Shown here in pieces: positions 33,379-56,502 of a stretch of 64,000 bases of DNA. The notes below the pieces were generated by a model. The model saw only the letters and a program-made list of their open reading frames with translations, was not told the origin of the DNA and did no database searches. A program made the translations under genes and the position numbers. Position 1 is the first letter of the stretch, and each line of letters begins with the position of its first letter. The stretch comes from a virus. Lineage: Duplodnaviria > Heunggongvirae > Uroviricota > Caudoviricetes. The stretch lies in IMG/VR virus record IMGVR_UViG_3300033067_000531, one strand, 5' to 3'.

Positions 33379-33379
33379 A

Positions 33380-35427: not shown

Positions 35428-35784
35428 TTACTCTAGTGTTTGTTCTAACCAGTTTAATGATTCATCGTCCCATACATAAATTTTACCATCATTTGGATAT
35501 GCAATTGGTGGTTCCCATAGACAAGTTTCTTCATTTAATATCCAACCTGAATGTAGTTTTGGTGGAATAAAGGCGTCTTTCAAACTGTCGTATGTATAAC
35601 CGATACCAGCAAAATTTTTACGGAATGGTGTGCCACCCAAAAGATGAACACCACCATGTGTGTTATAACTGGTTTGAATCCACTTGGAAGAATCACCTAC
35701 TAAACCTGAATCTATGAAGTCTTGTTCTGCAACAATAACTTCCGTTACAATATTATTTTCGTCAATCTTTGCGAAGTGTGCCAC
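35428..35784 (-). CDS. Conserved phage hypothetical protein (possible fibre assembly chaperone)
   Basis: MAHFAKID.NN.V..VIV, W.QTSYN, R.N.AGIG.TYD...DAFIPP, W.L.E.TC.WEPP..YP.DG..Y.WDE....W. Confidence 0.75.
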   Translation of the reverse strand: MAHFAKIDENNIVTEVIVAEQDFIDSGLVGDSSKWIQTSYNTHGGVHLLGGTPFRKNFAGIGYTYDSLKDAFIPPKLHSGWILNEETCLWEPPIAYPNDGKIYVWDDESLNWLEQTLE

Positions 35785-35785
35785 A

Positions 35786-36052
35786 TTAAGCTCCCATTAA
35801 TAAAAAAGGACTAATAACGCTGTTTGCTGTATTGGTTGCCGCTATTGATTGATTATATGCATTTGTGGCATTCACTGATGCTGTTGTTGCTTCATTATAT
35901 GCATCGGTAGCCAAAGTATATGCCGAATTCAACTGTGACGTATTGATGGACGTAGCAACTCTTTTCCATGCAGTGTTTGCTGCATTATAAGAGTATGTAA
36001 TACCATTTAAGGTTACTGTTTGTCCGTTTGTTGGTGATGATGGAAAAGACAT
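35786..36052 (-). CDS. Short stalk protein of fibre cassette 4
   Basis: The N-terminal FPSSPTNGQ..T.NG.TY.Y....W module is shared with 44554-47427; heptads; ends SPFLLMGA. Confidence 0.75.
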   Translation of the reverse strand: MSFPSSPTNGQTVTLNGITYSYNAANTAWKRVATSINTSQLNSAYTLATDAYNEATTASVNATNAYNQSIAATNTANSVISPFLLMGA

Positions 36053-36063
36053 TTAGTTATCCA

Positions 36064-37002
36064 TTAAGTTGGCCAAGCATAGTTGCCTGAGTAAACACCT
36101 GCGGATGTTACTCCTGGTGCTGCATATGTAGTAAAGTTTAAGTCGTGTGACGCCAAAACTACTGGGTTATTGTATGTTGGTAATACACCTGATGTTGGTG
36201 CGGTTGTTGAATATGTCCAATTAAATACCGAATCGTTAATTGTAAACGTAGAAGTGGAACTATAATCTATACCCGATACTTCTTTTGTTCCAAAAGTACA
36301 ATTATTCACGGTTGCTGTCATATTTAAACTGTTGTCGTAAGACATAGTCCAGTTAAAGTTTGCATTAGTTTCTTCAAATACACAATTATAAAATTTTCCG
36401 ATACACTTGGACGATGAATTGTTGAAAAATGCCACAGAAAATGTTCCGGTTTTACCTGAATTATTTCTTTTTAATATTGCACCATAAATCTCTGAGTTTG
36501 CATTATTAAAATAAGCAATTGGTGCATCACGTTGAGCAGTTGTTGCCGTCATATTTAAAGTAACTCGACCTGGTTGACAGATATATTTTGTGTATCCTGT
36601 ACCCAAATCGGAAAGTATAAAACTAGCACCTGTTGTTGTTCCCAACACACGTGGTGTTACGGTATAATCTCCAGCAAAAACAACTATTTTGCAGTTAAAA
36701 CTGGTATATGTATTGAATCTCAAGTCGTGTGCTTTATCCATTGTAGCCACGGCTGTGTATGCACTCAAGCCAGAATTGTTATCATTGCCTAGAGATTGGT
36801 TGACAAAAATAACAATCTCGTTCGCAACCACCGTGTTCACCAAAGTATTATAGAAAGAATTTGATGACAAATAAACGTTACCATAACTACCTCTAATTGT
36901 AGGTATATACAATTCATCTGGTTTTAACACAACACCATTCGAATTTCTGTCAAGTGATAACTGCGTTACACTCAATAGGCCTTGATTTAAACGACTTCTC
37001 AT
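36064..37002 (-). CDS. Putative receptor-binding head of fibre cassette 3 (beta-helix-like)
   Basis: MRSR N-terminus like 47458-48591; IFV....G.D.NSG.S...A.AT...A pectin-lyase-type entry motif; N/T/S-rich. Confidence 0.65.
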   Translation of the reverse strand: MRSRLNQGLLSVTQLSLDRNSNGVVLKPDELYIPTIRGSYGNVYLSSNSFYNTLVNTVVANEIVIFVNQSLGNDNNSGLSAYTAVATMDKAHDLRFNTYTSFNCKIVVFAGDYTVTPRVLGTTTGASFILSDLGTGYTKYICQPGRVTLNMTATTAQRDAPIAYFNNANSEIYGAILKRNNSGKTGTFSVAFFNNSSSKCIGKFYNCVFEETNANFNWTMSYDNSLNMTATVNNCTFGTKEVSGIDYSSTSTFTINDSVFNWTYSTTAPTSGVLPTYNNPVVLASHDLNFTTYAAPGVTSAGVYSGNYAWPT

Positions 37003-37003
37003 T

Positions 37004-37360
37004 TTAAGATATCAATTCGTAACTTGTAAAAATATTACCTGAATTATTGGACGACATGCTTGCGGATAGTTTGTCACCTTCTTCGAGGTACAAACTATTA
37101 TCTTTACCCATGACAGTCAAAGTGGAATTTGGTGGAATCAATAAACCTGAAACAAAAGCAAAATCAGTTGCATTTCTATTTACAAAAACATTTGATGTAA
37201 CTGCGGCTGTACCGTAGTTTGTGATTGTTATGTTGTTTAATTTGATTACGGTATTTGAACCCGCATTATTACTTACCACATCTATTTTTGTTGTGTTTAA
37301 TTGTAATGCTTCTATTTTACCTAGAACTACTGTTGAGTTTAATAAATTTGGACTGGACAT
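37004..37360 (-). CDS. Small ~120-aa fibre-cassette protein (adaptor-like paralog 3)
   Basis: PNL.N...V.GK, V.N..GS..V.KLN.I..TN, IPPNSTL.V..K...YLEEGD.L, ending SYELIS. Confidence 0.78.
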   Translation of the reverse strand: MSSPNLLNSTVVLGKIEALQLNTTKIDVVSNNAGSNTVIKLNNITITNYGTAAVTSNVFVNRNATDFAFVSGLLIPPNSTLTVMGKDNSLYLEEGDKLSASMSSNNSGNIFTSYELIS

Positions 37361-37822
37361 TTAACCTCCGAATATGATGTTCATAGTCATCGACTGTGCT
37401 CTTGTAACACCACTTGTTGAACTTGTTGTTGATATTGAAGAAGATAGTGTGTCCACCCAAGTGTTGGATGTACCTGAATTTATATATTCATAGAGAATAT
37501 CTTCATTCACATTGTACCATTGGTCACCAACGGCAGCAGTTGCTGGTGTTGTGTTTGAAGCAGTAAAAGTAATACCAGAACCACTACCACCCGTGTTTGC
37601 TTTAGTGAATGCTGCGTTGGCTAATACGTATGCAGTATTTGATTGACCGTATGCGGCAACCACCATGGCACTAGAACCTGCCGCATTAGCGGTCGTAAAT
37701 GCGGAGTTTGCGAACGCATATAAGTCTACACCACCAGCCACAACCGTATTGGCTGTGAGTTGGTCAACTGCATAATCTTGTGTGGAATCTAATCCTGATG
37801 GTTGTATTCTTGTTAGTGACAT
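37361..37822 (-). CDS. Short stalk protein of fibre cassette 3
   Basis: Heptads ANSAF..AN; P....GDQWY....D.LY.Y.....W.D module; ends MNIIFGG. Confidence 0.75.
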   Translation of the reverse strand: MSLTRIQPSGLDSTQDYAVDQLTANTVVAGGVDLYAFANSAFTTANAAGSSAMVVAAYGQSNTAYVLANAAFTKANTGGSGSGITFTASNTTPATAAVGDQWYNVNEDILYEYINSGTSNTWVDTLSSSISTTSSTSGVTRAQSMTMNIIFGG

Positions 37823-37846
37823 TTAATTTCCTAAATTATCCACTAT

Positions 37847-40800
37847 TTATTTCAGTATTAATGGTGCCGATGGAACTGTGATGGTTCTTGCTACACCTTT
37901 TGTGATTCTTAGGTCGGAGATATAACCAGACCAATATGCACCGTTTCTACTTCCGTTAACACCAATTGATAATGGACCGTTACCCAATACAGCTGAGGAT
38001 GTGCCGGTCGTGTTGGCAATTACTCCGTTGATATAACAACTGATAGTTGAACCGGATCTAGTTAAAGCAACATGAGTCCAACAATTCTGTTGTATGATGG
38101 GTGCGAAGGTGGTTGTTCCGGTCAAGTATATGTCGTATGCTAATTGATTTCCACTACTCAAGAAGAAAATAAAACGATTGGTTGTTTCGCTACCGAAAAC
38201 ACAAATAACGATATTAGTTGACGATGGATAAATCCAACCCTCAATTGTAAAGTCTTTTTGTAAGATATACTTATCTTCTACTAGGTTAACTGCTGTTGTA
38301 TTATTACAAATATAGTCTCCAGTACCATCGAAGTAATAACTTTGTCCAGTGGTGACTTGGAATGGGTTTTGTGCCACAACTTTTGGAGTTCCGGTTGTAG
38401 TAATGGTGTTTGTGTTTGCCGAGTTATCCACAAATTTATTTGACTGACAGGTTAAAATTTTTGTGCCTGAAATTGCAGTTAGTGGTGTTGTGCTTGGTGT
38501 GAAACCTGATGGATACAATGTAGGTGTATATAAAGCGGTACCATCGACCACTCGTAGATTGGAAATGTATCCGGTTGAGTATTGTGGACCGGGTGCCCAC
38601 CAACCAATACTTACAGCTGAACTATTACCAAACGCACCTGAAACACCAGTAGCTGTATTTGTTTGTTTTATTCCATTAACATATAAGTAAATAACGGAAC
38701 CTTCCCTCACCAAAGCAACATGAACCCATTTTCCTAATATAACAGGTGTGTTACCTGAGATGGTTGGACCACCCATATAATTCCACCATCCATTCACATA
38801 ACCAGATTCGATTGTTATTCCATAACTCTGTGTTGCGTTAGTTGACCCGATAACCCACAATCGACCAGTAGAAGTAGGCAATGCCCATGCTTCTACGGTA
38901 AAATTTCCAGTGCCTCCGGTAGGTATAGTATAACTTAAACCATCAGTAGTTCCATTAAAGTAATTACTGTAATAATTTCCATTATAAGGACTAAAGTTAG
39001 TCACTCTTGTATCGGCCACTGTCTGTAAGTTTGATGTTCTAGTTACATCAATAACACCAGCAGTAGTACCATTCAACAAGAACGCAGTGTTTGCTGTTAC
39101 TTGTGCTGGAGATGTACGTGGATAAAAACTACTTTGTCCATATAGACTTTCACCTTTAGTAATCAACACATCAGTCATGTAACCGTTAAAGTCCCAAGCA
39201 CTACCAGCATCAGTGTTGCGTCCAACATAGAAAACACTTGTTGTATCCGCAGATGGACCATATTGACCTGTTGCAACCAATTTGCCATTTGCATACGACT
39301 TCTGTTGAATGACTGTGCCATCATTAATAAATGTGGCTGCAATATGGTTCCATTGACCAGGAGGGAAACTACCTGATGGATATGAAGTAACACTACTTGT
39401 GTTGAATAAGAAACCAGCAGAACCGTTGGTACCTATGTCAAAACGCCAACGTGCTGCACCCAAACTAAACAACTGAACTTGCTTTGCGGCCAATTGGTAG
39501 AACCAACATTCGATTGTCCATGCACCTACACTCAAATCAAACGACTTGGTGTTCGGTGCACTCAAGTAATCACCTGAACCACCGAAGTACATTGAACTAC
39601 CAAAAGTTTCTGGTGAATAACTTAGACCTGTTACAGGTGTGGACGAGAAAGGTGATACAGGTAAACAACTCACATCACCTGCGCTCGTTATTGTAAATTT
39701 ATTATTACTATTATCCACCAAGGCGTTTGATTGACATGTCAATAAACTGGTACCCGACACACTAGACAATGGACTGGTTGGAACTGTTATTGTGCTTGAT
39801 GTAATATCGTATAATGCGTTACCTTTAACTACTCTTAGATTAGACATGTAACCTGGAAAATTTTCATTTCCTGATGCACCACTGAAATTGAATCCAGCAG
39901 ACCAATTAATCGTTCCCATACTAGAAGTAACAGTTGTATAACCAGTGCCGTTAATATACAATCTAGAATTAGCGCCTGAACGAACCCAGGCAAAATGATG
40001 CCAGGTATTATTTGTTATCATTGATGTATTTGCAGTGAAGCTGAACGACCCTCCGTTGTAATAATATACAAATCCGCCCGAAGCAGCCCAGTATATTTTT
40101 AATACTTGTCCATTATATCCCGAGGATACTAGATGATAGTAACTGCCATCAGAAAGTCCTGTTGGGTAAACCCAAAACTCAACTGTAAAATCACCATCCA
40201 ATGACATTGGTGTACCAGGAGATGATACTGTTAAATAATCACCAGTACCATCAAACTTAGTTGAATAATACTTCGGTACTGTTACTGTACTAAATGGTGA
40301 GAATTTTTGGACGGATACATCACCCGCTCTAGTAATTGTATAATTGTTAATTGAGTTATCAATAAATCTGTTAGATTGGCAGGTTAATAAACTTGTTCCT
40401 GTTACAACGGTTAGTGGTGTTGTGCTTGGAGTAAATGCATTAGTGTAAAGAGCAGTGCCTTTAACTACACGCAGATTCGAGATGTAACCAGAGAACACAT
40501 AATTAGAGGCACCATAATGACCAATGTTCCATGCTGTTGCCGTCTCGTTGCTTGTATCACTTGTAATTGTCAAGTCTAATGTACCGTTAATATACAATCT
40601 AGTTGTAGTTCCACTTCTAGACAATGCAATATGATACCAAGAACCTTGTGAAATAGTAGCGGTACTTAGTTGAGAGTTATCTTGAATACTCGGTGTGCGT
40701 ACACGAATTCTTTGTGAATAAACTCCTAATCCATACCCACCGGTACCACCAACACCTTGCACAAAAATACTTTCATCACCTGAACTAGAAGTTCTATAAA

Positions 40801-43800
40801 TCCAGCACTCAATTGTGAAATCACCTGTACCGAATGTTGATCCTGTTGCAGTAAGTGTGAGTGAATCACCTGAACCGTCGAAGTAGTTACTCCAATTATC
40901 ACCATATGGACTAAACGTACCATTCGTGCTATTACCGAATCGGGTCAGAATATTATTGAATCTAGACTCGTCTACAAACGTACTGTTGTTGTGAACACCG
41001 TTGGTTTGTAATGTCAGTAGTTGTGTATTGGTTACATTACTCAATGGACTTGTAAATTGTGGAACAAAGTTGGATGTGTATAGTGCTGTACCTTTGATAA
41101 CCCGAGCGTCCGCAATGTAACCGGTATAAGTCCAACCGGCAGTATTGATTTGGCCAATATATAAAGGGTTTGATATTGAAAAATTCAGTGCAGACACATC
41201 TGTTGTTGTATTTACTTGGACTCCATTAATAAACATTCGCAAACTGTTTCCGGAACGGGTGGCTGCCACATGACTCCATGCATTTGGTACGACTGTACCT
41301 GCATCAAAGTCTCCACCTGACAAACCATTACTGAACCTAAACGTAGCTCCGTTTAGACCCAAGTACCATCCTCCTCCAGTACCAAAAATTCCCATAATAC
41401 CTTTGGTTCCAGAAACATTACTTGGATTAATCCATGCTTCAACTGTAAAATTACCAGTTAATGTCAAACCAGTATTTGTGGTGGAAGTTAAATAATCACC
41501 GGTACCATCAAAGTAAGCACTACCATAAGTTGTAATCTGTGTATTACTGTAACTACTTGGTGTGAATGGACTTACTGCTACTGGTTTGACAGTTGTTGTA
41601 TTTGGTGTTATTGTATAGTTGTTTGTACTATTATCTTTAAATGTACTATCTTGACAGGTTAATAAAACAGTACCCGACACTGCTGTTAACGGTAAAGTTG
41701 GAACCGATATTGTGCTGCCACTGTATAAAACAGTACCAGTAACTACTCGTAGATTTGAAATATTACCAACAAATCGTTCAGTGTTGCTGTACGCACCGAT
41801 TCTATAAGGAACAAAAGTGGTGGATGTGGTGGATGACAACGATGACCTAACACCGTCAAGATATAGATACATAGTAGTACCGGACCTAGTCAATGCCACA
41901 TGATGCCAACTGTTGAACGTGACCGCAGTTTGATGAGTAATCGTAATCGAACCAGTATCCCAAATAACCAATGATGAATTATTTAAGCCAAGTTCAAAAT
42001 TGGCACTAACACTGGTAAATATATCCGCATAAGTTTTTGTTTGAGTTGGATATATCCATGCTTCCACAGTAAAATCACCAGATAAACTCATTGCAGTAGT
42101 ATCTAACCAATCGGATGTACTATTAAAATTTGTAGAATAGTATTGTGTGCCAGCTTGATATACAGTTGAGAATGGGTGTGCTGAACTTACGGTAGTATCA
42201 CCACCTTTGGTTAAAGTTGTATTTGTTGGTGAACTATCAATTAATCTATTAGACTGACAAGTTAGTAATTGTGTTGTGGGTGTTGGTAAAAACGGTGCAG
42301 TCGGTGGCGTGAATGTAGTGCCGTTATTGTATAAACAAGTGCCTTTGATAACTCTAAAATTAGAGATATTACCGTTCCATTCAGGTGTAGAACCTTCTTG
42401 AACTCTACCAATATCAAAACAGTTGGATGTTGCTAATGATACTGCTGTTTGATTTGATACTACAATATCTTGCACACCGTTAATATACAATCTGAATACA
42501 CCAGATTGTCGGACAAACGCAATGTGATTCCAACGACCTGGAACCAAGAAATATGATCCAGCTGTACCACTTGAACCAAAATAAGTATTGGTTCCATCAT
42601 ATCCATAAATGCCTAATCTATTATCCACATTGGTGTGACGGACAATTATACGTTTGTTATAAACACCTGAGGGATATAAAGCGAACAATCCTCTACCGTA
42701 TTGTGAACCCGCATAACCATTAGTTAGTGCGAAACATTCAATGGTAAAATCTCCGGTACCCATATCAAAGTTTGATGATGCACCCGTAGTTAAGTAATCA
42801 CCAGTACCATCAAAGAAATTACTATAATAACCGACTTGGTATGGATTGAAGTTTGTTGCTCTTGTATCACCAAATACAGTTAGTTGTGCATTATTAATAC
42901 TGTTGTCGTAAACATAACTTGGTGTTTGAATGGAACTATTTGCACTTAGCAACAGTGTGTTGTATTTAAAATACTGGTCTCCAGAAACACTTACTGTCCA
43001 AGAAATAAATCTTGTTGCGGTTCTATTTGTTGTGTTTGATGTTGCTGTCAACTGTGTGTATACTGTTTGTGTTTCTGTTGGTGTACCAGAAATTGTACCA
43101 CCACTCAAAGTTACACCTGTTGGTAAGGCATTTGCTGTGTACTGAACACCATAACCAGCCGCTGAATTTGCGGATAGTGTCACAGCAGTAATTGCACTAC
43201 CTTGAGGTACTGCATATTCTGTGTTATTTGCTGGAGATGACCATGTAACAACGTCTTGATTTACGGTGAACGTTACGTTGGATGTTGTGAATCTGCCTGT
43301 GGTATTTGCAGTTGCAGTCAGTTGCGCATTTGTGTTACCAACAGTGTTTGCGTATCCAACGAGTGCACCTGTACTAGAGTTTAGTGTGATGCCTGTGGGT
43401 AATGTGTCTGCTGAGTACATGACACCATAACCAGCTGCACTGGTTGCACTCAATGGTGTACTGAATGATTGCGTTTCGTATACAGACAAAGAACCATTGA
43501 GTGTAGGTGCGACCCAAGTAACCGCATCAGGATTAATTGTCAGACTAAACGCACGGTCGGAATCTTGGTTCTGACCATCACTTGCACGAATAGTAAATGA
43601 ATATGTGGTCGGTGATGATGTTGCTGGTAATGTACCAGACAATTCACCAGATGAACTCAATGTAACACCACTAGGTAGATTACCAGAAACGATACTGTAT
43701 GTGATAGTTGCATCACCTGTTGCAGTAAATGTGGTATAACTTAGTGTCGATGCGTTCTTGGTTTCATAAGATGTACCAATTGTACCGGATGCAGGTGAAC

Positions 43801-44188
43801 TCCAAGTAGGAAGACCAGAGTAAACCAAACCAGGAACGTAAATGGCTGTGGCACCGTCTGTGTTTGATACGTAGATGGTGTAAGATGCAGCTGAAAGTGA
43901 TGGTGATGTGAAGGTGATTCTGTTGGAATCCAGAACGGTAACGATACCAATATTGGAACCATTAATATTTACCGTTGCACCAGATGCAAAACCTGAACCA
44001 TAAAGAACAATCGTTTGGCCACCAGCAGTATCAAGTGCTGTGTCGTCAATAGGATTATACGAGCCGTCAGTTATTGACCAAGAATCAATGATTGGTATTG
44101 GATAACTTGTCTGGTTAAATTTCTCATTAACTGAAATTACGCCATAACCGTCTGGTGCTCTCTTGCCTCTACGTCCGGAATTGTACAT
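37847..44188 (-). CDS. Giant 2113-aa adhesin: IPT/TIG + Ig-like repeats + eight LamG/concanavalin-A-like domains
   Basis: Eight S..FDG.GDYL / FT.E.W..P / W.H.A..R.G....Y.NG / G.ISNLRV.KG.A.Y units joined by LLTCQ...D.S linkers. N-terminal GG..I.L.GSGF and W.SP Ig repeats. Confidence 0.9.
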   Translation of the reverse strand: MYNSGRRGKRAPDGYGVISVNEKFNQTSYPIPIIDSWSITDGSYNPIDDTALDTAGGQTIVLYGSGFASGATVNINGSNIGIVTVLDSNRITFTSPSLSAASYTIYVSNTDGATAIYVPGLVYSGLPTWSSPASGTIGTSYETKNASTLSYTTFTATGDATITYSIVSGNLPSGVTLSSSGELSGTLPATSSPTTYSFTIRASDGQNQDSDRAFSLTINPDAVTWVAPTLNGSLSVYETQSFSTPLSATSAAGYGVMYSADTLPTGITLNSSTGALVGYANTVGNTNAQLTATANTTGRFTTSNVTFTVNQDVVTWSSPANNTEYAVPQGSAITAVTLSANSAAGYGVQYTANALPTGVTLSGGTISGTPTETQTVYTQLTATSNTTNRTATRFISWTVSVSGDQYFKYNTLLLSANSSIQTPSYVYDNSINNAQLTVFGDTRATNFNPYQVGYYSNFFDGTGDYLTTGASSNFDMGTGDFTIECFALTNGYAGSQYGRGLFALYPSGVYNKRIIVRHTNVDNRLGIYGYDGTNTYFGSSGTAGSYFLVPGRWNHIAFVRQSGVFRLYINGVQDIVVSNQTAVSLATSNCFDIGRVQEGSTPEWNGNISNFRVIKGTCLYNNGTTFTPPTAPFLPTPTTQLLTCQSNRLIDSSPTNTTLTKGGDTTVSSAHPFSTVYQAGTQYYSTNFNSTSDWLDTTAMSLSGDFTVEAWIYPTQTKTYADIFTSVSANFELGLNNSSLVIWDTGSITITHQTAVTFNSWHHVALTRSGTTMYLYLDGVRSSLSSTTSTTFVPYRIGAYSNTERFVGNISNLRVVTGTVLYSGSTISVPTLPLTAVSGTVLLTCQDSTFKDNSTNNYTITPNTTTVKPVAVSPFTPSSYSNTQITTYGSAYFDGTGDYLTSTTNTGLTLTGNFTVEAWINPSNVSGTKGIMGIFGTGGGWYLGLNGATFRFSNGLSGGDFDAGTVVPNAWSHVAATRSGNSLRMFINGVQVNTTTDVSALNFSISNPLYIGQINTAGWTYTGYIADARVIKGTALYTSNFVPQFTSPLSNVTNTQLLTLQTNGVHNNSTFVDESRFNNILTRFGNSTNGTFSPYGDNWSNYFDGSGDSLTLTATGSTFGTGDFTIECWIYRTSSSGDESIFVQGVGGTGGYGLGVYSQRIRVRTPSIQDNSQLSTATISQGSWYHIALSRSGTTTRLYINGTLDLTITSDTSNETATAWNIGHYGASNYVFSGYISNLRVVKGTALYTNAFTPSTTPLTVVTGTSLLTCQSNRFIDNSINNYTITRAGDVSVQKFSPFSTVTVPKYYSTKFDGTGDYLTVSSPGTPMSLDGDFTVEFWVYPTGLSDGSYYHLVSSGYNGQVLKIYWAASGGFVYYYNGGSFSFTANTSMITNNTWHHFAWVRSGANSRLYINGTGYTTVTSSMGTINWSAGFNFSGASGNENFPGYMSNLRVVKGNALYDITSSTITVPTSPLSSVSGTSLLTCQSNALVDNSNNKFTITSAGDVSCLPVSPFSSTPVTGLSYSPETFGSSMYFGGSGDYLSAPNTKSFDLSVGAWTIECWFYQLAAKQVQLFSLGAARWRFDIGTNGSAGFLFNTSSVTSYPSGSFPPGQWNHIAATFINDGTVIQQKSYANGKLVATGQYGPSADTTSVFYVGRNTDAGSAWDFNGYMTDVLITKGESLYGQSSFYPRTSPAQVTANTAFLLNGTTAGVIDVTRTSNLQTVADTRVTNFSPYNGNYYSNYFNGTTDGLSYTIPTGGTGNFTVEAWALPTSTGRLWVIGSTNATQSYGITIESGYVNGWWNYMGGPTISGNTPVILGKWVHVALVREGSVIYLYVNGIKQTNTATGVSGAFGNSSAVSIGWWAPGPQYSTGYISNLRVVDGTALYTPTLYPSGFTPSTTPLTAISGTKILTCQSNKFVDNSANTNTITTTGTPKVVAQNPFQVTTGQSYYFDGTGDYICNNTTAVNLVEDKYILQKDFTIEGWIYPSSTNIVICVFGSETTNRFIFFLSSGNQLAYDIYLTGTTTFAPIIQQNCWTHVALTRSGSTISCYINGVIANTTGTSSAVLGNGPLSIGVNGSRNGAYWSGYISDLRITKGVARTITVPSAPLILK

Positions 44189-44550
44189 TAACTGATAGCC
44201 TCATAAGAACAAACTGCTTCTAGATAACCATTGGCACTTGAAGTCAGTCTAATTGAATCGTTTTCTTCTAGGTATATAATCAAACCTTTATCAATTGGAG
44301 AGAATGAAGTATTTGCTGTAACTGGAACCTGATATGCCATTCTATATGCATTTGTTTGGTTCTTGTATACATCAACAGAAATACTTGCTGTTCCTGTTCC
44401 TGATATGTTTGATACCACGAGAGTATTTATCTTATAGACCGCACCGCTGGCATTTGCATTTGTTACAATAGCTGTTGGAGTTGTGGTCACAACCATGCCG
44501 GTTGTGTTACCATAAATTGTTGATACGTTAACGATATTCATCTGTGACAT
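44188..44550 (-). CDS. Small ~120-aa fibre-cassette protein (adaptor-like paralog 2)
   Basis: NIVNVSTIYGNT, VYKINTL.VSN, V.ANTS...IDK...YLEENDSIR, ending SYEAIS. Confidence 0.8.
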   Translation of the reverse strand: MSQMNIVNVSTIYGNTTGMVVTTTPTAIVTNANASGAVYKINTLVVSNISGTGTASISVDVYKNQTNAYRMAYQVPVTANTSFSPIDKGLIIYLEENDSIRLTSSANGYLEAVCSYEAIS

Positions 44551-44553
44551 TTA

Positions 44554-47427: not shown

Positions 47428-47457
47428 TGATTACCTTGAATGTTATATCTCTAGTAT

Positions 47458-48591
47458 TTATTGGTATCGGTAACAGAAAATTACAGCACCGCCGCCACCA
47501 CTACCTAGGTATGTTATTGAAGTAGTTGTGGCATCCGGTATTATACTGCCGCCGCCACCGCCGCCATACCCAGCAAATCCGACTGTTCCTGGTGAGGTTG
47601 CACTTGTCGTGGTTGGTGCTCCGCCGTGACCGGCCGTTTGTGTTGCAGCTGTATCGGCTGGACCGCATAAACCTGGTCTGGCACGTGTGCCAGGGGTAAC
47701 GCCGTTAGATGCACACCAAAAATATCCTCGAGCTCCGGCGCCGCCAGCTCCATAATAACTGTTAGTTCTTGGCCACAGATAACCGTCTCCGCCGTATCCA
47801 CTTTGTGCTACTGTAAAACCATATAATCCTGGTTTACCAACACCCATGGCACCACCTCCGCCGCCGCCGGCTTGATATGTTACCGATGATGTTGTTATAT
47901 CATATGTGCCGCCGTTATTACCTAGTTGTGGTGCAACTACGTTTGTTGCTGTTGGAACGTATCCTCCGGAACTTGATCCATATGCTGATCCACCTGCTCC
48001 GGATGCACCGGCCGTGCCGTTTCTAGTTCTAGTTATCGTACCAACTCTAATAATACCAGTGGCAGAACCACCACCACCAGCAGAATAGGAATGCCCCCTG
48101 TTGGACTCGACAATTGAATTTCCGCCTGGTATAGCATCTATGCCGGTATCACTGGTTGTGTTTACTACAGCACCCTGACCAACCGTGACCGTGAATGTTG
48201 TTCCTGGTTCGACCCAAGTACTAACAACAGTCACACCTCCACCACCTCCACCACCAGAAACCAACGAACTTATTTGAGTTCCACTGTTGTTTTTTATAAT
48301 TCCACCTGATCCACCACCACCCACAAGTAATATTTCTAATTGTCCGGAACCATTCACAACAGTGAAGGTTCCGTTTGCAGTGAATGTGTGTGTTTTATAA
48401 TTTGCATTATCTGTAGCTGTGCCGATTGTTCCACCGGTTGCAGAGTAAATAAAACCGGTACCTAATGGCCAAATTGGATTGGGTCCTGTATTGTAGATGG
48501 CTGCATCGTGAATAAAGAATACACCATTGGCATAGTTTTGTGTTGGTAGTGCATATGCACCAATAACTCCACCGTTACTTCTACTTCTCAT
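47458..48591 (-). CDS. Glycine-rich virion protein (head of fibre cassette 1)
   Basis: MRSRSNGGVIG N-terminus; ATGG....Y.THTFT..GTF.V, LLVGGGG.GG, C-terminal GSGGGGAVI..Y. Confidence 0.78.
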   Translation of the reverse strand: MRSRSNGGVIGAYALPTQNYANGVFFIHDAAIYNTGPNPIWPLGTGFIYSATGGTIGTATDNANYKTHTFTANGTFTVVNGSGQLEILLVGGGGSGGIIKNNSGTQISSLVSGGGGGGGVTVVSTWVEPGTTFTVTVGQGAVVNTTSDTGIDAIPGGNSIVESNRGHSYSAGGGGSATGIIRVGTITRTRNGTAGASGAGGSAYGSSSGGYVPTATNVVAPQLGNNGGTYDITTSSVTYQAGGGGGGAMGVGKPGLYGFTVAQSGYGGDGYLWPRTNSYYGAGGAGARGYFWCASNGVTPGTRARPGLCGPADTAATQTAGHGGAPTTTSATSPGTVGFAGYGGGGGGSIIPDATTTSITYLGSGGGGAVIFCYRYQ

Positions 48592-48593
48592 AA

Positions 48594-48962
48594 TTAACCA
48601 ATTGTTTCAAAAGAAATTGTGAAATGGCAGGTGTAACCTGTTGCAACGTTGCAACGAAGCGAATCACCTTCCAACAAATAAATGGCAGTATCTTTTGCTT
48701 GAACAACCAGTGATGAGTTGCCTGGTACAGTTGTGTTCGCAGCCAAGAAATTACCTACACCGTTTCTGAATACGTCCACACCAATAGGAATATTAACTGC
48801 ATTTGGATTAGCAACCATGATAGTATTCAATTTGTATGCTTGACCACTATTAACTGCATTAGTCAATACGTTGGCCATGGCAATACTTGCGGCACCATTT
48901 GCTTGATAGAAAATGGTGTTACCGTAAATATTATTTGTTAAGATTAAATTTGGTGCGCTCAT
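48594..48962 (-). CDS. Small ~120-aa fibre-cassette protein (adaptor-like paralog 1)
   Basis: APNL......IYGNT, AYKLNTIMVAN, VPGNSSL.V..K...YLLEGDSLR, ending SFETIG. Confidence 0.8.
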   Translation of the reverse strand: MSAPNLILTNNIYGNTIFYQANGAASIAMANVLTNAVNSGQAYKLNTIMVANPNAVNIPIGVDVFRNGVGNFLAANTTVPGNSSLVVQAKDTAIYLLEGDSLRCNVATGYTCHFTISFETIG

Positions 48963-51900
48963 TTAGAAACCTCCAAAAATCATGGCGTGAGCTGCTGCAC
49001 GTCCATAACCTGTATAAGTGTAAGATATTACTGTGTTACCTACTGTGACTGTTGGTGAACCAATGTCGATCCAGTAGTAGTTTGTTCCATCTGCTGTGAT
49101 CCATTGATACATAATGTCTGCATCGGTCTTGTACCAGATAGCACTTGTTGATGGGTTATCTGGTGGTGTTTCACCTGTATGGTATGTAGGTGCAACGATG
49201 GAGTTTGCCTTGTTGTATGCACCTGTTGCCAATGCAATACTTGTGTTGGTTGTTCCGAATGCTGCATTAGCGGTATCATATGCCGCATTAGCATGACCTC
49301 TTGCCCAACCGTCAATAGATGTACCACCTGTTACCAGTGTATTTGCATATGCGTATGCGGAGTTTGCTAATACATATGCATCATTGGCCTTAGTAAATGC
49401 ACCACCTGCTGTACTGGTCACATTTGTAATCTGTGTGTTCTGATAAGAATCTACACCTTGAATAACTGTGATTGCACCAGCATTAGTATTCGCTGTACCA
49501 AATGCTGCGTTTGCTAACACTAAGGCTTGATTACCGACTACTTCATTGTTCGCAACAGCAAAGGCTGCGTTGACCAATGTTAGTGTGGAACTAATCTGTG
49601 TATTTTGGTAAGAATCTACACCTTGGATATTGCTGATGTTGGTTGCATTGGTGTTTGCCAAACTAAATGCAGCATTAGAGAAACTTTGTTCTAGTGCCAG
49701 TGTTTGTGCATTGGTGTTTGCCAAACCAAATGCCGAGTTGGCATATGAACCTGCAATACCCGCATCAGTTGTTGCTGTGTTGGCCTTGGTGTATGCAGAG
49801 TTAGCATACGATGCAACCAAAGTAACATTGGTGTTCTGCACTAAGTTGACACCAGCCAAATCTAACGTGTTATTGTATGCAGGATATGCATAGTTGTATG
49901 CGTTGTTTGCTAATGTATATGCGTTACCTGCATCAGTTGTTGCTGTGTTTGCCTGACCGTATGCCAATAGACCTGTTGCCAGTGCTGTATCAGCAACATC
50001 ACCCGCAGAATTGGCTTTACCATACGCAGCTGTTGCTAAAATGTTTGTTGTGTTTGCTTGACCATATGCACTTGTTGTTAGTATACCAACAGAGTTTGCG
50101 TAATCAAATGCAGAAGTGGCCAAGATGTTTGTTGTGTTTGACTTGGCAAAGGCACCGTTAGCAAATACACCTGCATTATTGGCTCTTGCAAACGCAGCTT
50201 GAGTGATATCGTAAGTTAGGTTTGCATGACCATAAGCATTATCTGCCAACACATACACAGCATTGGATTGACCAAATGCCGAATTAGCACGTTCAAATGC
50301 ACCATTGGCATATGTTCCAACTAAAACACCACCCAGTTGATACGCTGTATTTGCAGCATCAAAAGCAAGATTTGCCTGGGTAAATGCACCGTTAGCAAAT
50401 GAGCCACTGTTTACTGCATAGTCATAAGAACTATTGGCCTTAGCGAACGCACTGGTTGTTAGTGTTGCGTTTGTGTTGACTGTATCAAATGATGCATTTG
50501 CAAGGATGTATGCAGCATTCGCCTGTGCAAATGCACCGTTGGCAAATACACCAGCAACACCACCACCAATTTGGTAAGCGGCATTCGCCATTTCAAATGC
50601 TGAGTTGGCGTATATACCTACGTTGTTAGCAACATCGAAAGCACTAGATGCCAGAATGTTAACTGTGTTTGCCTTAGAGAAGGCACCGTTGGCAAATACA
50701 CCTGCATTGTTTGCACGACCAAAGGCACTAGATGCCAATATGGTACCAGTATTTGCCTGACCATAACCTAGGTTTGCAGTATCGTATGCGGAGATTAAAT
50801 CTGCTTGCAATACTGTTACTGCATCACCAACTGTGTTTGCTTTCTCAAATGCACCGTTGGCAAAGTTGCCAGCATTAGTTGCATATAATTGTGCAGTGTT
50901 TGCTTTGGAGAAGGCACCATTTGCGTATATGCCTGAGTTGTTAGCTCTTGCATATGCGGAAACGGAGTAACTATAACCTAGGTTAGCGGTCTCGAATGAA
51001 GAAGTTAATTCTCCTTGTACCAAGACCAGTGTTTCTGCTGTTGTATTTGCTTGTGCAAAGGCACCGTTAGCATAATCACCTGCATTTGTTGCATATGTGT
51101 ATGCTGCATTAGCACGACCATAAGCACTATTTGCATAGTTACCTACGTTGTTTGCCTTGATATATGCAGAGTTAGCATATGAACCAGTCAATGTAACGTT
51201 GGTGTTTTGATATGCATCGACACCACTTTGGTTTGTTAGGTCTGTGCTGTATGTGGAAGAATCAACAGGAGTAAAACCTAATGCACCAGTAACATCACCT
51301 GAATTTAATGTGACTGCACCAGTTCTTGTATTGAATGTGGTCACCGGTGTTTGTGAACTGATACTAGCCACACGGCCGTATGAGTCCACAACCAATGATG
51401 GATATGTGTATGTGCCACCAGTTACACCTGTCGTTGCCAGGTCAATAGTAATGTCTGTTGTTCCTGATGAGGTGATTCTACCGGATGTACCAGAAACTGT
51501 TGCAACTCTATTATTTGCCAATACATATGCGCTGTTGGCCTTATCAAATGCCAAGTTTGCATGTGTTGCAATATTCAATCCAGATATGGTGATTGCGTTG
51601 GCTTCTACTGTACCAAGTTTTAATGTGTCATAGACAGCGTTGGTGAAATCTACGGTAGTTGATGGTTCCGAAACTACATTACTAAACAATTTCCACTTAC
51701 CATCGTTCGCATCACGAACAAAACCTGTGTGTTGGTAAGTACCATCATTAAATGCACCAACAATACCAATATCAATTGTATTTGTGTTATTGTTGTTTGC
51801 CAAATAGATGATAGAATCATCCAATGTCAAGTTGTTTGCAGACACCGATGTGGCATTACCACCAATGTATAAGTTACCAGAGATGCGCAAGTCGTTACTG

Positions 51901-53759
51901 ATGAAAACATTACCTGTTACACTCAAGGCATTTGCAGATGATGTATCTGTAATACTCAATGAACCGGTAATAGAATCACCGGACTTACTTACCTTTGTAT
52001 CAATAATGTTCTTTAGGTAAGTGTTGGCTGTGTTTGTATATGTAATTACATCAATACCAGAAGATGTAGTGAAACTGTTTGCAACAACTGGACGATAGAA
52101 TTCTACGTTTGCATTGTATTTGAAACGTGCAATCTCGTCATAGTTCTGACCCTGAACAAAAGAAATGTCTGCGAAACCACCTGAACCTGCGGTACCAAGA
52201 GTTAAGTTACCACCATAACTGGACGCTGTATTACCGACCAAGAACAACCAACCATCGTTTGGTTGAGAGAATGGATATGCATTGAAGGTTGAATTGTCGT
52301 AAGTACTACCGGCCAGACCCATATCAATAAAGTTGACTGTATCTGTTCCGTTATCAGCAGTAATAACGATATCACCTGAACCATTGGCACGTAAGTTCTG
52401 TTGGTTGATTTGTGAATATAAATCGGAAGAACCTGTGAACTGAGCAATCAAGTTAGGTAATACTTGATAAGAACCTGTACCAACAGACAAACTGTTGTAT
52501 ACGTTTGCACGACCTGGTACTGTGAAGTTATTGGCAACAGTAATATCTGTCGTATTGGCTAATGCATTATTTGCCTTTGTGTATGCACTGTTGGCATAAG
52601 ATGCAACCAATGTAATATTGGTATTCTGTACCAAGTCAACACCTTGGATGTTGGTGATGTTGGTTGCATTGGTATTCGCAGCATCGAAAGCCGCTTGAAT
52701 AGATGTGTTCTGTACTAAGTTGACACCTTCAATCGCAGTAATATTGGTTGCATTGGTGTTGGCCTTAGTGAAGGCACCATTAGCGTAAGAACTAACCAAT
52801 GTAATATTGGTGTTCTGTAATAGGTTTACACCTTGCAATGCAGTAATATTGGTTGCATTGGTGTTGGCTGCATCAAATGCTGATTGAATGGAAGTATTTT
52901 GTGTTAAGTCAACATCTTGTAGTGCATCAATTACCAAAGCATTGGTGTTGGCTTGGTCATAAGCACTATTTGCATGATTTCTTGCCAATGCATCAATTGA
53001 ACCACCAGACAGAGCAATCGTATTTGCGTATGCGAATGCTGCGTTTGCGTGACCCCAAGATAATGATATGGATGTGTTCTGTGTTAGGTCTACACCACGC
53101 AGTTCATCAATTCCGATTGCGTTTGTGTTTGCCGCATCAAATGCACCGTTGGCAAATACACCAACGTTAGTGATGAAAGTATTTTGTCCAAGGTTAACAC
53201 CTTCAATATTGGTAATACTTGTTGCATTTGTGTTGGACTTGGCAAAGGCACCATTTGCAAAAGTGGCTGCATTAAGAATTGCAGCATTTTGGGATGCATC
53301 GACACCACCTTGTGATTGTGTTGCTGTGTATGCTGGTAGAATATAGTTTGTGTAATCAGAATTGGCTTTATCGAAAGCTGCATTTGCTCTGATGTATGCA
53401 CCATTTGCATATGTTTGTGTGTTGATTGTTACACTATTTTGATATGCATCCACACCTTGCAAGTAAATGATATCTGTGATGGCAGTATTGACCATCGCAT
53501 TAATAGCATTCACGTAGTTCCAAGATGCACCAGCTGTGTACTGTATAGAACCGTCACCAAATGTTACGTTAGGAAAACGACCTGCTGCGGCCGAGGTTCT
53601 TGCAATAACGTTAACGGTATTTGATGAGTCTTTGTAAAAAATTATACCATCAGGTACATTGATGGCCAATTCACCAATAATTAAATTGGTGTTTGCTGGT
53701 ACACTACCGGATGTATTTGAATAGTATAACTGAATCGGGGTTGAATTGGATGCAGCCAT
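48963..53759 (-). CDS. 1598-aa fibre stalk protein with Mtd_N-like N-terminus (cassette 1)
   Basis: IQL.YS......P....L..GELAIN..DG..F.K N-terminus; >100 Ala/Asn heptads with GVD..QNT nodes; C-terminal PP.NP....W...D..MY.W module; ends AMIFGGF. Confidence 0.85.
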   Translation of the reverse strand: MAASNSTPIQLYYSNTSGSVPANTNLIIGELAINVPDGIIFYKDSSNTVNVIARTSAAAGRFPNVTFGDGSIQYTAGASWNYVNAINAMVNTAITDIIYLQGVDAYQNSVTINTQTYANGAYIRANAAFDKANSDYTNYILPAYTATQSQGGVDASQNAAILNAATFANGAFAKSNTNATSITNIEGVNLGQNTFITNVGVFANGAFDAANTNAIGIDELRGVDLTQNTSISLSWGHANAAFAYANTIALSGGSIDALARNHANSAYDQANTNALVIDALQDVDLTQNTSIQSAFDAANTNATNITALQGVNLLQNTNITLVSSYANGAFTKANTNATNITAIEGVNLVQNTSIQAAFDAANTNATNITNIQGVDLVQNTNITLVASYANSAYTKANNALANTTDITVANNFTVPGRANVYNSLSVGTGSYQVLPNLIAQFTGSSDLYSQINQQNLRANGSGDIVITADNGTDTVNFIDMGLAGSTYDNSTFNAYPFSQPNDGWLFLVGNTASSYGGNLTLGTAGSGGFADISFVQGQNYDEIARFKYNANVEFYRPVVANSFTTSSGIDVITYTNTANTYLKNIIDTKVSKSGDSITGSLSITDTSSANALSVTGNVFISNDLRISGNLYIGGNATSVSANNLTLDDSIIYLANNNNTNTIDIGIVGAFNDGTYQHTGFVRDANDGKWKLFSNVVSEPSTTVDFTNAVYDTLKLGTVEANAITISGLNIATHANLAFDKANSAYVLANNRVATVSGTSGRITSSGTTDITIDLATTGVTGGTYTYPSLVVDSYGRVASISSQTPVTTFNTRTGAVTLNSGDVTGALGFTPVDSSTYSTDLTNQSGVDAYQNTNVTLTGSYANSAYIKANNVGNYANSAYGRANAAYTYATNAGDYANGAFAQANTTAETLVLVQGELTSSFETANLGYSYSVSAYARANNSGIYANGAFSKANTAQLYATNAGNFANGAFEKANTVGDAVTVLQADLISAYDTANLGYGQANTGTILASSAFGRANNAGVFANGAFSKANTVNILASSAFDVANNVGIYANSAFEMANAAYQIGGGVAGVFANGAFAQANAAYILANASFDTVNTNATLTTSAFAKANSSYDYAVNSGSFANGAFTQANLAFDAANTAYQLGGVLVGTYANGAFERANSAFGQSNAVYVLADNAYGHANLTYDITQAAFARANNAGVFANGAFAKSNTTNILATSAFDYANSVGILTTSAYGQANTTNILATAAYGKANSAGDVADTALATGLLAYGQANTATTDAGNAYTLANNAYNYAYPAYNNTLDLAGVNLVQNTNVTLVASYANSAYTKANTATTDAGIAGSYANSAFGLANTNAQTLALEQSFSNAAFSLANTNATNISNIQGVDSYQNTQISSTLTLVNAAFAVANNEVVGNQALVLANAAFGTANTNAGAITVIQGVDSYQNTQITNVTSTAGGAFTKANDAYVLANSAYAYANTLVTGGTSIDGWARGHANAAYDTANAAFGTTNTSIALATGAYNKANSIVAPTYHTGETPPDNPSTSAIWYKTDADIMYQWITADGTNYYWIDIGSPTVTVGNTVISYTYTGYGRAAAHAMIFGGF

Positions 53760-53794
53760 CGTTGCCTTACTCTTTTAATTATTGTATCTACTAT

Positions 53795-56281
53795 TTAGAA
53801 TGTGCCACCTGTAATTAGTGAGGCTTGGACGATTCCTCCAACATAAACATTACCTGCAGCACCAATACCACCTGATACCACGATTGTTCCTGTGGTTGTA
53901 TTGGTACTGTCTATCGCTCCATTTGCTTGTAACTGGTCAAAGTAACCAGTTGATGTACCTAGTCCACCTGAAACGGTAAATGCCGCACCACCAGAACTGG
54001 TTAACGAAATGGATCCTGAATCGGAGTTGGAACCAATAGTTGCACCTTCTAAGTCGATAGTGTTGCCGGCGATGTATAGTTTTCTCCAACGTCTAGTAGG
54101 AGAACCCAAGTCATACATCAAATTCTCATTCGGTAATAAGTGACCTGAGTACAGGTTGGCGGAGAATACACCATTTTGACCAACTGTCAGTGTATTGTTA
54201 ATGACCAATGCACCAGACATTGTATCACCAGACTTCAATACAGAGTTGTTAGCACGTGTAAATGCACCGTTGGCATACGAGGCCGCATTGTTTGCCTGAA
54301 TAAAACCAGCATTTGCACGTACAAATGCACTGTTGGCATAAGAACCGGTTAAGGTGATGTTTGTATTTTGTGAAACGTCAACACCCTGCACGACAGTGAT
54401 ATCACCACCAACAGTATTGGCCTTATCAAACGCAGCATTAGCAAACAAACCTGCACCAATTGCGGTAGATAATCCTGTGTTTGCTTGAGCAAATGCAGCA
54501 TCTGTGTTTGCGCTGTTGGTGTTTGACTTTGCAAAAGCACTATCAGCTAAAGAAGCCGCAGTGTTTGCCTTAGTGTATGCACTGTTGGCATAAGATGCAA
54601 CCAAAACTATGTTGTTGGAAGAAGTATTTGCTACTGCAAAAACAACGTTTGCTTGAGTGGATGCTAAGTTTGCCTGTGTAAAGGCACCGTTGGCATAGAT
54701 TCCGACAGTATTGGCTCTCAGATAAGCACCATTAGCAAACACACCTGAAGCGATGGAAGTTTGTTCTGCGGTGTTTGCTTGATTAAATGCAACGTTGGAA
54801 CGTATGAACGCAGCGTTTGCTTGGTCAAAGGCCGAGGTGGCTAGTGTGTACGACAGGTTTGCGGTTGAGAATGCCGCATTAGCCTGATTAAATGCATCAA
54901 CACTTGAACCACCACCGCCACCAGTATTTGCCAATTCATATGCTGCATTAGCCTTTGCATATGCGGAGTTTGCCAAATCGGTAGCTGTATTAACTGCACC
55001 ACGCACCCAAGTATCGGTCGCATTATTTGCCGCAGACCATGCAAGGTTCGCGGTGTTGAATGCTGCTGTTGCTGTATTCTGTGATGAACCAGTTGCAACA
55101 GTCAATGTTGAGATACTTGGTAAAACAGATAGTGTTAGTGTGTTATAGTTTGTATTTGCCTTGGCGAAAGCACCATTAGCATAAGAACCGACCTCTGTTA
55201 CACTGGAAGATAATGTGTTTGCAGAATCAAAAGCTGCCTGTGCCAAAGAGTTGGCAGTATTTGCACGAACGAATGCTGCATTGGCTTGACTGAAACCAAG
55301 AGTTGCGGTGTTACTTGCTGTGTTTGCGGTATTGTAAGCACTGACCAAATAAGGTGCAACGTTAATACCATTGACAATTGCATAGTTTGCAATTATGTTA
55401 CCTTTGAAGAACGCAGCATTAACGTTAGAGTATGCAAACGATGGGTCCGTAACATCAATTAAGTTGGATGAAGTGATGAATGGTGTGTAACCCTGGAAAA
55501 AGTTCCATTCTTTTGTGGTTGGGTTACGGAACAAACCTGTTTTGGCCAATGTTCCTGCATTGTAATAACCATACAAACCAATATCAATTGCATCCGAACT
55601 GATGTTGTTATTTGCTAATGCAATTAATGGGTCTGTCACATACACATCAGTTGTAGAAACAGAGAATACATTACCTACAACAGAAAGGTTACCAGAAACA
55701 GTTAAGTTATTGGTGATGGATAATGAACCATTGATAGTTCCTCCTGTATTTACCAATGCATTGTTTGCCTTGGAGTATGCGGAGGTTGCCAGACTGGTTG
55801 CCAGTGCAATATTGGTGTTTTGTACTAAGTCTACACCGTAAATATTTGTTACGTTGTTTGCTTGTGTAAACGCAGCGTTAGCCTGTGCATAAGCTAGTTG
55901 TGCCACCGCAGCATTGTTTGCAGCAGCAAATGCCGCATTAGCTAATGTTGTTGCAGTGTTTGCCTGATTGTATGCTTGGTTTGCACGTAGATGAGCACTG
56001 TTGGCAGTACCAAATGCTGACGTAACTGTTGCACTTGAACCTGCTGCATTAGCCGCAGTGAATGCTGCTGTTGCAGTATCGTATGCCACATTGGCACGAC
56101 CAAATGCACTGTATGCAGTATTAACAACTGTGTTACCACCAATAACGATTGCGTTACCGGAAGTGTTACCGATGTAAAGTGTTTGATTTACGAACGAGTA
56201 TGCTGGTTGACCATCAAGTAAGTATGATGGTTCTGTATTAGCATACGAACGAAGTATTTGAATTGGTGAGGTATTTGCCAT
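53795..56281 (-). CDS. 828-aa fibre stalk protein with Mtd_N-like N-terminus
   Basis: IQI.RS.....P..L.DG..AYS.....LYIG N-terminus; V.DP.I.L...N..D..DIG.YG module; heptads; YDLGS...RWR.LY; ends ITGGTF. Confidence 0.85.
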   Translation of the reverse strand: MANTSPIQILRSYANTEPSYLLDGQPAYSFVNQTLYIGNTSGNAIVIGGNTVVNTAYSAFGRANVAYDTATAAFTAANAAGSSATVTSAFGTANSAHLRANQAYNQANTATTLANAAFAAANNAAVAQLAYAQANAAFTQANNVTNIYGVDLVQNTNIALATSLATSAYSKANNALVNTGGTINGSLSITNNLTVSGNLSVVGNVFSVSTTDVYVTDPLIALANNNISSDAIDIGLYGYYNAGTLAKTGLFRNPTTKEWNFFQGYTPFITSSNLIDVTDPSFAYSNVNAAFFKGNIIANYAIVNGINVAPYLVSAYNTANTASNTATLGFSQANAAFVRANTANSLAQAAFDSANTLSSSVTEVGSYANGAFAKANTNYNTLTLSVLPSISTLTVATGSSQNTATAAFNTANLAWSAANNATDTWVRGAVNTATDLANSAYAKANAAYELANTGGGGGSSVDAFNQANAAFSTANLSYTLATSAFDQANAAFIRSNVAFNQANTAEQTSIASGVFANGAYLRANTVGIYANGAFTQANLASTQANVVFAVANTSSNNIVLVASYANSAYTKANTAASLADSAFAKSNTNSANTDAAFAQANTGLSTAIGAGLFANAAFDKANTVGGDITVVQGVDVSQNTNITLTGSYANSAFVRANAGFIQANNAASYANGAFTRANNSVLKSGDTMSGALVINNTLTVGQNGVFSANLYSGHLLPNENLMYDLGSPTRRWRKLYIAGNTIDLEGATIGSNSDSGSISLTSSGGAAFTVSGGLGTSTGYFDQLQANGAIDSTNTTTGTIVVSGGIGAAGNVYVGGIVQASLITGGTF

Positions 56282-56502
56282 TAGTATGTTCCGTTGTCAA
56301 TCGCAATCACAACACCTGATGCAGGTCCAATAACAAAACTATTGGTGGATGCTTGGTAAATAATGGCATAACCATCGGCCGCACCAGTTAATGATAAGTC
56401 CGATGCACTTTTTAATGTTCTAGTACCGTATGATAGTGCGGTCACAGATGGTTTATTTTGACCAACTGTAACTCTTACGGTTGATGGTGGTGTTGTTGCC
56501 AT
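56281..56502 (-). CDS. Small virion protein (73 aa)
   Basis: TAATG-coupled to the next gene; L..A.D....GA.DG..I.Y.A.T..F module; ends IDNGTY. Confidence 0.7.
   Translation of the reverse strand: MATTPPSTVRVTVGQNKPSVTALSYGTRTLKSASDLSLTGAADGYAIIYQASTNSFVIGPASGVVIAIDNGTY

Follow-up and report, generated by a model that had tools for sequence, protein, structure and literature searches.

We analyzed a 64,000-nucleotide stretch of DNA (hereafter the window) from the virus record IMGVR_UViG_3300033067_000531 (Caudoviricetes). The region at 20-32 kb carries T4-like phage genes for the terminase, sheath, portal, scaffold, major head and sheath stabiliser, and the neck proteins Ad2 and Hc2 are encoded at 32497-34153. 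Immediately upstream of the neck genes, on the minus strand, lies a cluster of fibre genes (Table 1) encoding stalks with short conserved C-terminal peptides (hereafter tags), small jelly-roll adaptors and separately encoded heads. The class of the tag predicts the class of the acceptor encoded downstream, which is either an Mtd_N-like domain at the start of the next stalk or an adaptor. This pattern is real and widespread, being found in this phage and in hundreds of uncultured aquatic phages.

A sequence-only reading of the window had listed six C-termini (IDNGTY, ITGGTF, AMIFGGF, MTIVFGG, MNIIFGG, and FLLMGA), and all of them are present exactly as listed, on the minus strand. The genes next to IDNGTY and ITGGTF do carry the Mtd_N-like start proposed for them: PF18454 (Mtd_N) gave no direct match for either window N-terminus, and a profile seeded on Mtd of phage BPP-1 and rebuilt after removal of the window sequences and of sequences closely related to them matched both (E = 1e-12 and 4e-10). 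Each of the three IFGG-type stalks is directly followed by a small protein of 118-122 amino acids (PN class). The consensus PN(I/L)..N...YG.T given for these proteins is exact in only one of the three, as 37004-37360 has LGKI for YG.T and 44188-44550 has MNI for PNI. The fourth stalk, ending in FLLMGA, is paired with a YK-class adaptor as proposed, but the two genes are not adjacent, since a phrog_7759 gene (35428-35784) sits between the open reading frame (ORF) 35786-36052 and the YK gene.

The association between tags and acceptors was examined in both directions. In the forward search, degenerate DNA patterns of a tag plus stop codon were run on IMG/VR blind to the next gene, and duplicates were removed. 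Among the matches listed, the gene after IDGGT[FY]-stop was Mtd_N-like in 73 of 124 cases, with an Mtd_N-like gene in second place in 11 more and an adaptor next in none; FLLMGA-stop was followed by a YK adaptor in 100 of 109, and MAIVFG(G)-stop by a PN adaptor in 97 of 113 and by an FKN-class adaptor in 6. Each of the latter two sets held a single off-diagonal Mtd case. In the reverse search, loci were retrieved by their acceptor and the tag directly upstream was scored by regular expression (39, 54, and 47) plus hand-counted variants. A matching tag stood directly upstream of about 50 of 67 YK, 61 of 73 PN and 57 of 68 Mtd acceptors, the PN figure being possibly inflated by a search profile built from tag-selected sequences. 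No FG tag was found upstream in the YK set, and the background frequency of tags in the same loci was 2-4.5% of called genes. The tabulation of next-gene families suggested by the sequence-only reading is thus near-diagonal against this background, and its central claim, that tag class predicts acceptor class, is borne out from both ends. The same pairs are present in the cultured phages Bellamy, S-SKS1, HTVC033P, and DSL-LC04, and the pairing is kept across an intervening gene in several loci, the window among them. Often a DGG-tagged stalk is separated from the Mtd_N gene that follows by a short coiled-coil-like gene (loci L088, L103, L106, L117, L144, L166, L171, and L202).

The tags are conserved as peptides. 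In the acceptor-selected sets, stalks upstream of PN adaptors have a pairwise identity of about 0.1 along their length and 0.6-0.9 only in the last 12 residues, while those upstream of YK adaptors go from about 0.1 to 0.4-0.6 in the last 5 residues (conserved stretch of 5-6). The stalks are unrelated except for their last 6-12 residues, and the tag residues are encoded by mixed synonymous codons. The description of the tags as beta-peptides is plausible for the DGG class, but the adaptor tags look helical, as they are Ala/Met-rich, start with S-P or T-G and close with Gly; judged from these features, short helices are more likely than strands.

For the DGG class, the link to a characterized protein comes from BPP-1. 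The Mtd_N-like family, 46 of whose 118 members are matched by PF18454, retrieves BPP-1 Mtd from the PDB (1YU0, E = 8e-11) and a phage hyaluronidase (4e-4) in profile searches. An AlphaFold2 (AF2) monomer model of a short Mtd_N-plus-tag relative shows a matching strand-helix-strand pattern with a disordered tag (predicted local distance difference test, pLDDT, 67). The BPP-1 fibre protein Bbp9 (L451:4599-6125) ends in DLGGIA directly before mtd, which fits the D[YLF]G tag variant found upstream of canonical Mtd_N genes. Mtd is located at the ends of the BPP-1 fibres (PMC2408619) and its attachment has been presumed to occur via its beta-prism (PMC10743442); no paper that we found names a donor peptide for it. 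Some short Mtd_N proteins carry two tandem DGG-like motifs near the C-terminus (L262:639-896, L461:4768-4998, L413:5266-5616, L498:3116-3469, and L500:4603-4998), and it is possible that these are fork points binding two downstream stalks.

The PN and YK adaptors are homologous (hhalign 96.5%), and further classes (FKN, LNxFK, and KALFR) are preceded by ALG, FG, or MGAL tags. A PN protein was modelled as a single jelly roll (pLDDT 91.7) with low confidence in the first ten residues. No Pfam family was detected in 66 adaptor members, and PDB sequence searches with the PN and YK profiles returned nothing significant and no solved homologue. Fold searches retrieved generic jelly rolls (Ena1B, KHP40 cement, and the STIV and HFTV1 turret proteins; Z 8.6-9.4), none of them outstanding. 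The HFTV1 protein, which is a hexameric capsid-bound turret base according to the HFTV1 paper, was set aside as a guide to adaptor function because its role is different. An ESM Atlas search returned only unnamed viral clusters; viral structural relatives are abundant, and those of S-TIM5, MaMV-DC, and S-SCSM1 are labelled "virion structural protein", these labels being given as annotated and not matched to proteomics. Naturally fused forms carry the adaptor N-terminal to an S74-bearing fibre, to a large head and to glycine-rich heads, and no adaptor fused C-terminally to a stalk was found among 8000 scored candidates. Short stalks of 45-100 amino acids still retain tag and adaptor. In four cases (L238, L241, L395, and L206:6763-7302) the adaptor is split after its N-terminal arm by an insertion of 179-353 amino acids, with arm and core kept; another ORF (P0005) joins adenosylhomocysteinase to half an adaptor and is probably a misassembly.

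Heads differ with the adaptor that precedes them. Starts of the GGxIG type occur after 79 of 151 PN adaptors and after none of 140 YK adaptors, and the adaptor gene always lies between the stalk gene and the head. At the other end of the cluster, the order LtfC-like gene, DGG-tagged gene, Mtd_N-like gene was observed in 36 of 49 loci. Two further pairings involve domains internal to the stalks, in which no T4 gp10-like branching domain was matched by Pfam or PHROG. Upstream of F-type starts, the nearest branch domain was Y in 56 cases, both in 5 and X only in none, and upstream of T-type starts it was X in 27, both in 4 and Y only in 1, in counts that leave lineage co-occurrence uncontrolled. 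Y and F are homologous (92%), and Y and Mtd_N possibly so (76%). Under these pairings each stalk of the window has exactly one upstream partner (ring, 73, 828, 1598 with Y, 957 with F and X, 153 with T and Y, and 88 with F), so that the genes form one branched tree with four capped tips and no linear polymer. The "polymeric fibre" of the sequence-only reading therefore finds no support in that wording: the linear DGG/Mtd_N chain is limited to the first three proteins, the hydrophobic tags end their stalks in an adaptor and head, and the other stalks branch.

Table 1. Genes of the fibre cluster, in order from the probable root to the fourth tip (positions in the window).
Feature	Position	Strand	Basis
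LtfC-like beta-sandwich, probable collar ring rooting the fibre on the virion	56505..56855	-	PF23926 E 1e-8; phrog_3304; conserved gene order
Anchor, 73 aa (amino acids); strand-like N-terminal segment; DGG-class tag IDNGTY at 56284-56301	56281..56502	-	
Stalk, 828 aa; Mtd_N-like start 56132-56281; DGG-class tag ITGGTF 53798-53815	53795..56281	-	Leave-out profile E 4e-10; phrog_13481 tail fibre
Stalk, 1598 aa; Mtd_N-like start 53610-53759; internal Y branch domain 49056-49181; FG-class tag 48966-49004	48963..53759	-	
Adaptor 1, PN-class jelly roll, variant arm	48594..48962	-	
Head 1, glycine-rich adhesin-like, NGGVIG-type start	47458..48591	-	PF21722; head-start motif test
Stalk, 957 aa; F-type start 47329-47427; internal X branch domain 44668-44859; canonical FG-class tag 44557-44592	44554..47427	-	
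Adaptor 2, PN class, canonical arm, predicted single jelly roll	44188..44550	-	AF2 pLDDT 91.7; fold searches
Head 2, 2113 aa; Ig (He_PIG) repeats and eight LamG domains	37847..44188	-	
Stalk, 153 aa; T-type N-terminal peptide; internal Y domain 37445-37567; variant FG-class tag 37364-37402	37361..37822	-	
Adaptor 3, PN class, variant arm	37004..37360	-	
Head 3, 312 aa, without Pfam or PHROG family; Asn-, Ser-, and Thr-rich	36064..37002	-	Cassette position
Stalk, 88 aa; F-type start 35954-36052; FLLMGA tag 35789-35812	35786..36052	-	
phrog_7759 protein, glycine-rich-head partner, lodged between tag gene and YK adaptor	35428..35784	-	
YK-class jelly-roll adaptor	35087..35416	-	Homology to PN class (hhalign 96.5%); phrog_1276 N-terminus
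Head 4, glycine-rich adhesin-like	34188..35087	-	PF21722

Taken as a whole, the gene content points to a plug-and-socket system that would assemble a branched virion fibre of this T4-like phage, with the tags docking directly to their acceptors, a reading to which we assign a probability of about 0.7. The start of each stalk would be a socket or plug joining an earlier piece, and its end a free C-terminal tag. The Mtd_N-like domain of the following stalk would grip a DGG-class tag and so extend the fibre, while the hydrophobic Gly-ended tags (FG, FLLMG, ALG, and MGAL classes) would be gripped by a class-matched adaptor, probably via its N-terminal arm, and the adaptor would hold the adhesin head through the N-terminal peptide of the head. 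Internal Y domains may serve as branch points for stalks with F-type starts, and internal X domains for those with T-type starts. In the window, the fibre would run from the LtfC-like ring through the 73-residue anchor and the 828-residue stalk to the 1598-residue stalk carrying head 1, with branches formed by the 957-residue stalk with head 2, then the 153-residue stalk with head 3, and then the 88-residue stalk with head 4. Joined in this way, the pieces would probably form a branched fibre on which several host-binding tips are exchangeable. Physical contact, stoichiometry, and position on the virion are what we infer from this arrangement, as is an assembly order set by operon order and paralogue-specific variants.

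Co-variation within the pairs bears on direct contact. Residue 9 of the PN arm, four after the conserved Asn, is concordant with the upstream part of the tag in 101 of 102 pairs, and arm residue and tag variant change 10 and 9 times, respectively, on a core tree built without the arm. The three PN pairs of the window represent three different variants, and among five loci with several PN adaptors exactly one pair is canonical in three. Complex prediction for three PN adaptors together with three 36-residue stalk ends gave scores of 0.28, 0.49, and 0.26 (mark 0.32), which count neither for nor against contact.

Several observations weigh against direct docking or against a simple code. What supports docking is the genomic context together with conserved sequence. 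On a tree of 150 adaptor cores, tag class changes just 4 times, so that the chi-square p of 1e-113 overstates independence. The arm trait was picked after seeing the data, and the independent-pairs test of arm and tag has too little power on well-supported branches (p = 0.25; 3 pairs the same way, 0 opposite). Column-wise mutual information between tag and adaptor does not exceed the shuffled maxima; the co-variation expected by the sequence-only reading is seen between arm and tag variants and not at this level. Co-evolution of tag and adaptor is suggested, not proved. Among the matches listed, a different gene comes next in 47 of 124 IDGGT[FY] ORFs, of which about 17 are short anchors of podovirus type. 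FG tags also occur upstream of FKN-class adaptors and DGG variants are common to several Mtd subtypes, though the subtypes show preferences, which means that the code is not one-to-one. Prophage or gene transfer agent-like Mtd_N genes in bacterial genomes are mostly without a called tagged gene upstream (8 loci, with weak gene calls).

Gene adjacency of tag and acceptor is a tendency and no rule. The proposal that gene order spells out the fibre lacks support in that form, as 41% of the IDGGT[FY] ORFs have no directly following Mtd_N-like gene and Mtd subtypes take several DGG variants. Several stalks that are last in their cluster end in IDGGT[FY] without an acceptor next, and the order of assembly would probably rest on operon order and variant preferences rather than on a strict cipher. 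At six loci (L225, L254, L263, L274, L293, and L307) an Mtd_N-headed stalk follows a stalk with an MMMGA end; this tag fits an adaptor further on, so strict adjacency is broken there. The roughly 17 podovirus-type proteins (L090, L122, L131, L142, L155, and others) are 70-90 amino acids long, start with MSNYTK, end in IDGGT[FY], and have unrelated genes next, with an Mtd_N-like gene elsewhere in at least one locus (L165).

The terminal Gly could in principle be a by-product of the Shine-Dalgarno sequence (GGAG/GGAGG) of the next gene lying within the upstream reading frame. GGA codons and Shine-Dalgarno-like 4-mers do dominate where the gap is 5 nt or less (FLLMGA, 72 of 87; MAIVFG, 25 of 29), but at larger gaps this bias vanishes and the tag persists without such a word (MAIVFG, 83 of 84; PN acceptor-selected, 24 of 26). 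Class specificity and the conservation of non-Gly residues up to 12 positions back would also be left unexplained. We consider this explanation largely refuted and very improbable; the Shine-Dalgarno sequence is a real bias, on codon choice only. Another explanation is a shuffled DNA cassette whose ends, tag and acceptor, are inherited together, the tag being the stalk's own trimer cap or a relic that makes no contact with the acceptor. The few tag changes on the adaptor tree and the recombination that clearly occurs just upstream of the tag fit such a cassette, which seems unlikely given that tags are conserved between adaptors only 55-61% identical on average, across spacers of -14 to about 100 nt and across inserted genes, and that arm and tag variants change together several times.

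Transient fibre-assembly chaperones are known, Tfa and T4 gp38 being examples, and the small proteins might likewise recognise the stalk C-terminus during folding and then leave, with the heads attached otherwise. This would account equally well for a class-matched tag, adjacency, and small size. It would leave out the DGG/Mtd_N pairs, in which the acceptor belongs to the next fibre, and stalks of 45-100 amino acids offer nothing to fold yet keep tag and adaptor. Fusions of adaptors to heads and fibres, together with head N-termini that track adaptor class, favour a connector over a chaperone, and we regard the chaperone explanation as improbable too.

Direct docking has parallels in known systems. 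In KP32, K11, and KP34, podophages of Klebsiella, a branched system of receptor-binding proteins (RBPs) is built with a branching domain and a conserved peptide (PMC13352976, PMC6872550), whose interaction has been experimentally shown (PMC13352976). Both systems have separately encoded fibre pieces, a short conserved peptide with a partner domain, and branching, which is predicted in the present case, and the X-domain/T-peptide pairing would work similarly. Two defining features of the Klebsiella system are lacking here: there, the peptide is N-terminal in the second of two RBPs and there is no separate adaptor, whereas the cluster described here has free C-terminal tags (only the T peptide being N-terminal), adaptors that form a jelly-roll family of their own, several classes in parallel, and a predicted tree with four tips, with glycine-rich or LamG heads and no depolymerases. 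BPP-1 Bbp9 and Mtd (PDB 1YU0; PMC2408619, PMC10743442) share the homologous N-terminal domain and the DGG-like tag directly before mtd, but Mtd is a terminal receptor-binding trimer, whereas in the window the domain stands at the start of stalks carrying further tags at their ends. In the T5/DT57C collar, LtfA donates beta-strands to LtfC, its N-terminus augmenting the LtfC sheets, in a branched fibre with LtfA and LtfB (PMC10713586). The window likewise has an LtfC-like gene (PF23926), and the fibre gene after it has a strand-like N-terminus; unlike T5, this is a myovirus, its anchor is only 73 amino acids long, and the fibre would be handed on via a C-terminal tag.

T-even phages of the S16 type carry a separate glycine-rich adhesin, gp38, at the fibre tip, which binds gp37 directly. 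The PF21722 heads 1 and 4 resemble it in kind and in predicted place, but here an adaptor lies between stalk and head, and heads that are not glycine-rich use the same adaptors. The chain-like fibres of A1002, GP4, and VP1 are multi-subunit and use beta-sheet augmentation on peptide docking sites, with dimers strung on one rope protein (PMC13730344). Peptide docking of multi-subunit fibres would be common to these and the present cluster, and C-terminal tags and class-matched adaptors are absent from those fibres. Literature searches for these motifs, for such a tag system or for the adaptor family found no paper, in a coverage that leaves out most subscription papers.

Fibre genes without annotation form long, hypervariable runs in T4-like and other aquatic phages. 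With a docking code that can be read, stalks, adaptors, and tips could be assigned and the number of host-binding heads per virion predicted, and head swapping through recombination at the tag would be explained. It would also offer a specific donor peptide for the joint between Mtd and the BPP-1 fibre, an attachment long presumed, and a function for a large adaptor family without Pfam entry or solved structure. A broader proposal, which we put forward only tentatively and consider doubtful at present, is that the peptide code of aquatic phages is multi-class and partly orthogonal, comprising DGG/Mtd_N, four hydrophobic tag/adaptor classes, X/T and Y/F, and adaptor/head, and that paralogous pairs within one genome would diverge in step, giving each stalk a head of its own. 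If so, the wiring of branched fibres could be deduced from genome sequence and put to new use as a set of protein connectors.

Of 124 relatives of the phrog_7759 gene that separates the FLLMGA tag from its adaptor, 113 have a glycine-rich gene at most 2 genes away, lying directly upstream in 99. The phrog_7759 product is possibly a head-specific chaperone or cap. Finally, a second small tree lies beyond the cluster, where an S74-chaperone fibre (57690-60512) with a weak X domain (amino acids 556-612, E = 1e-3) is followed by a protein with a T-type start and no tag (56890-57693).

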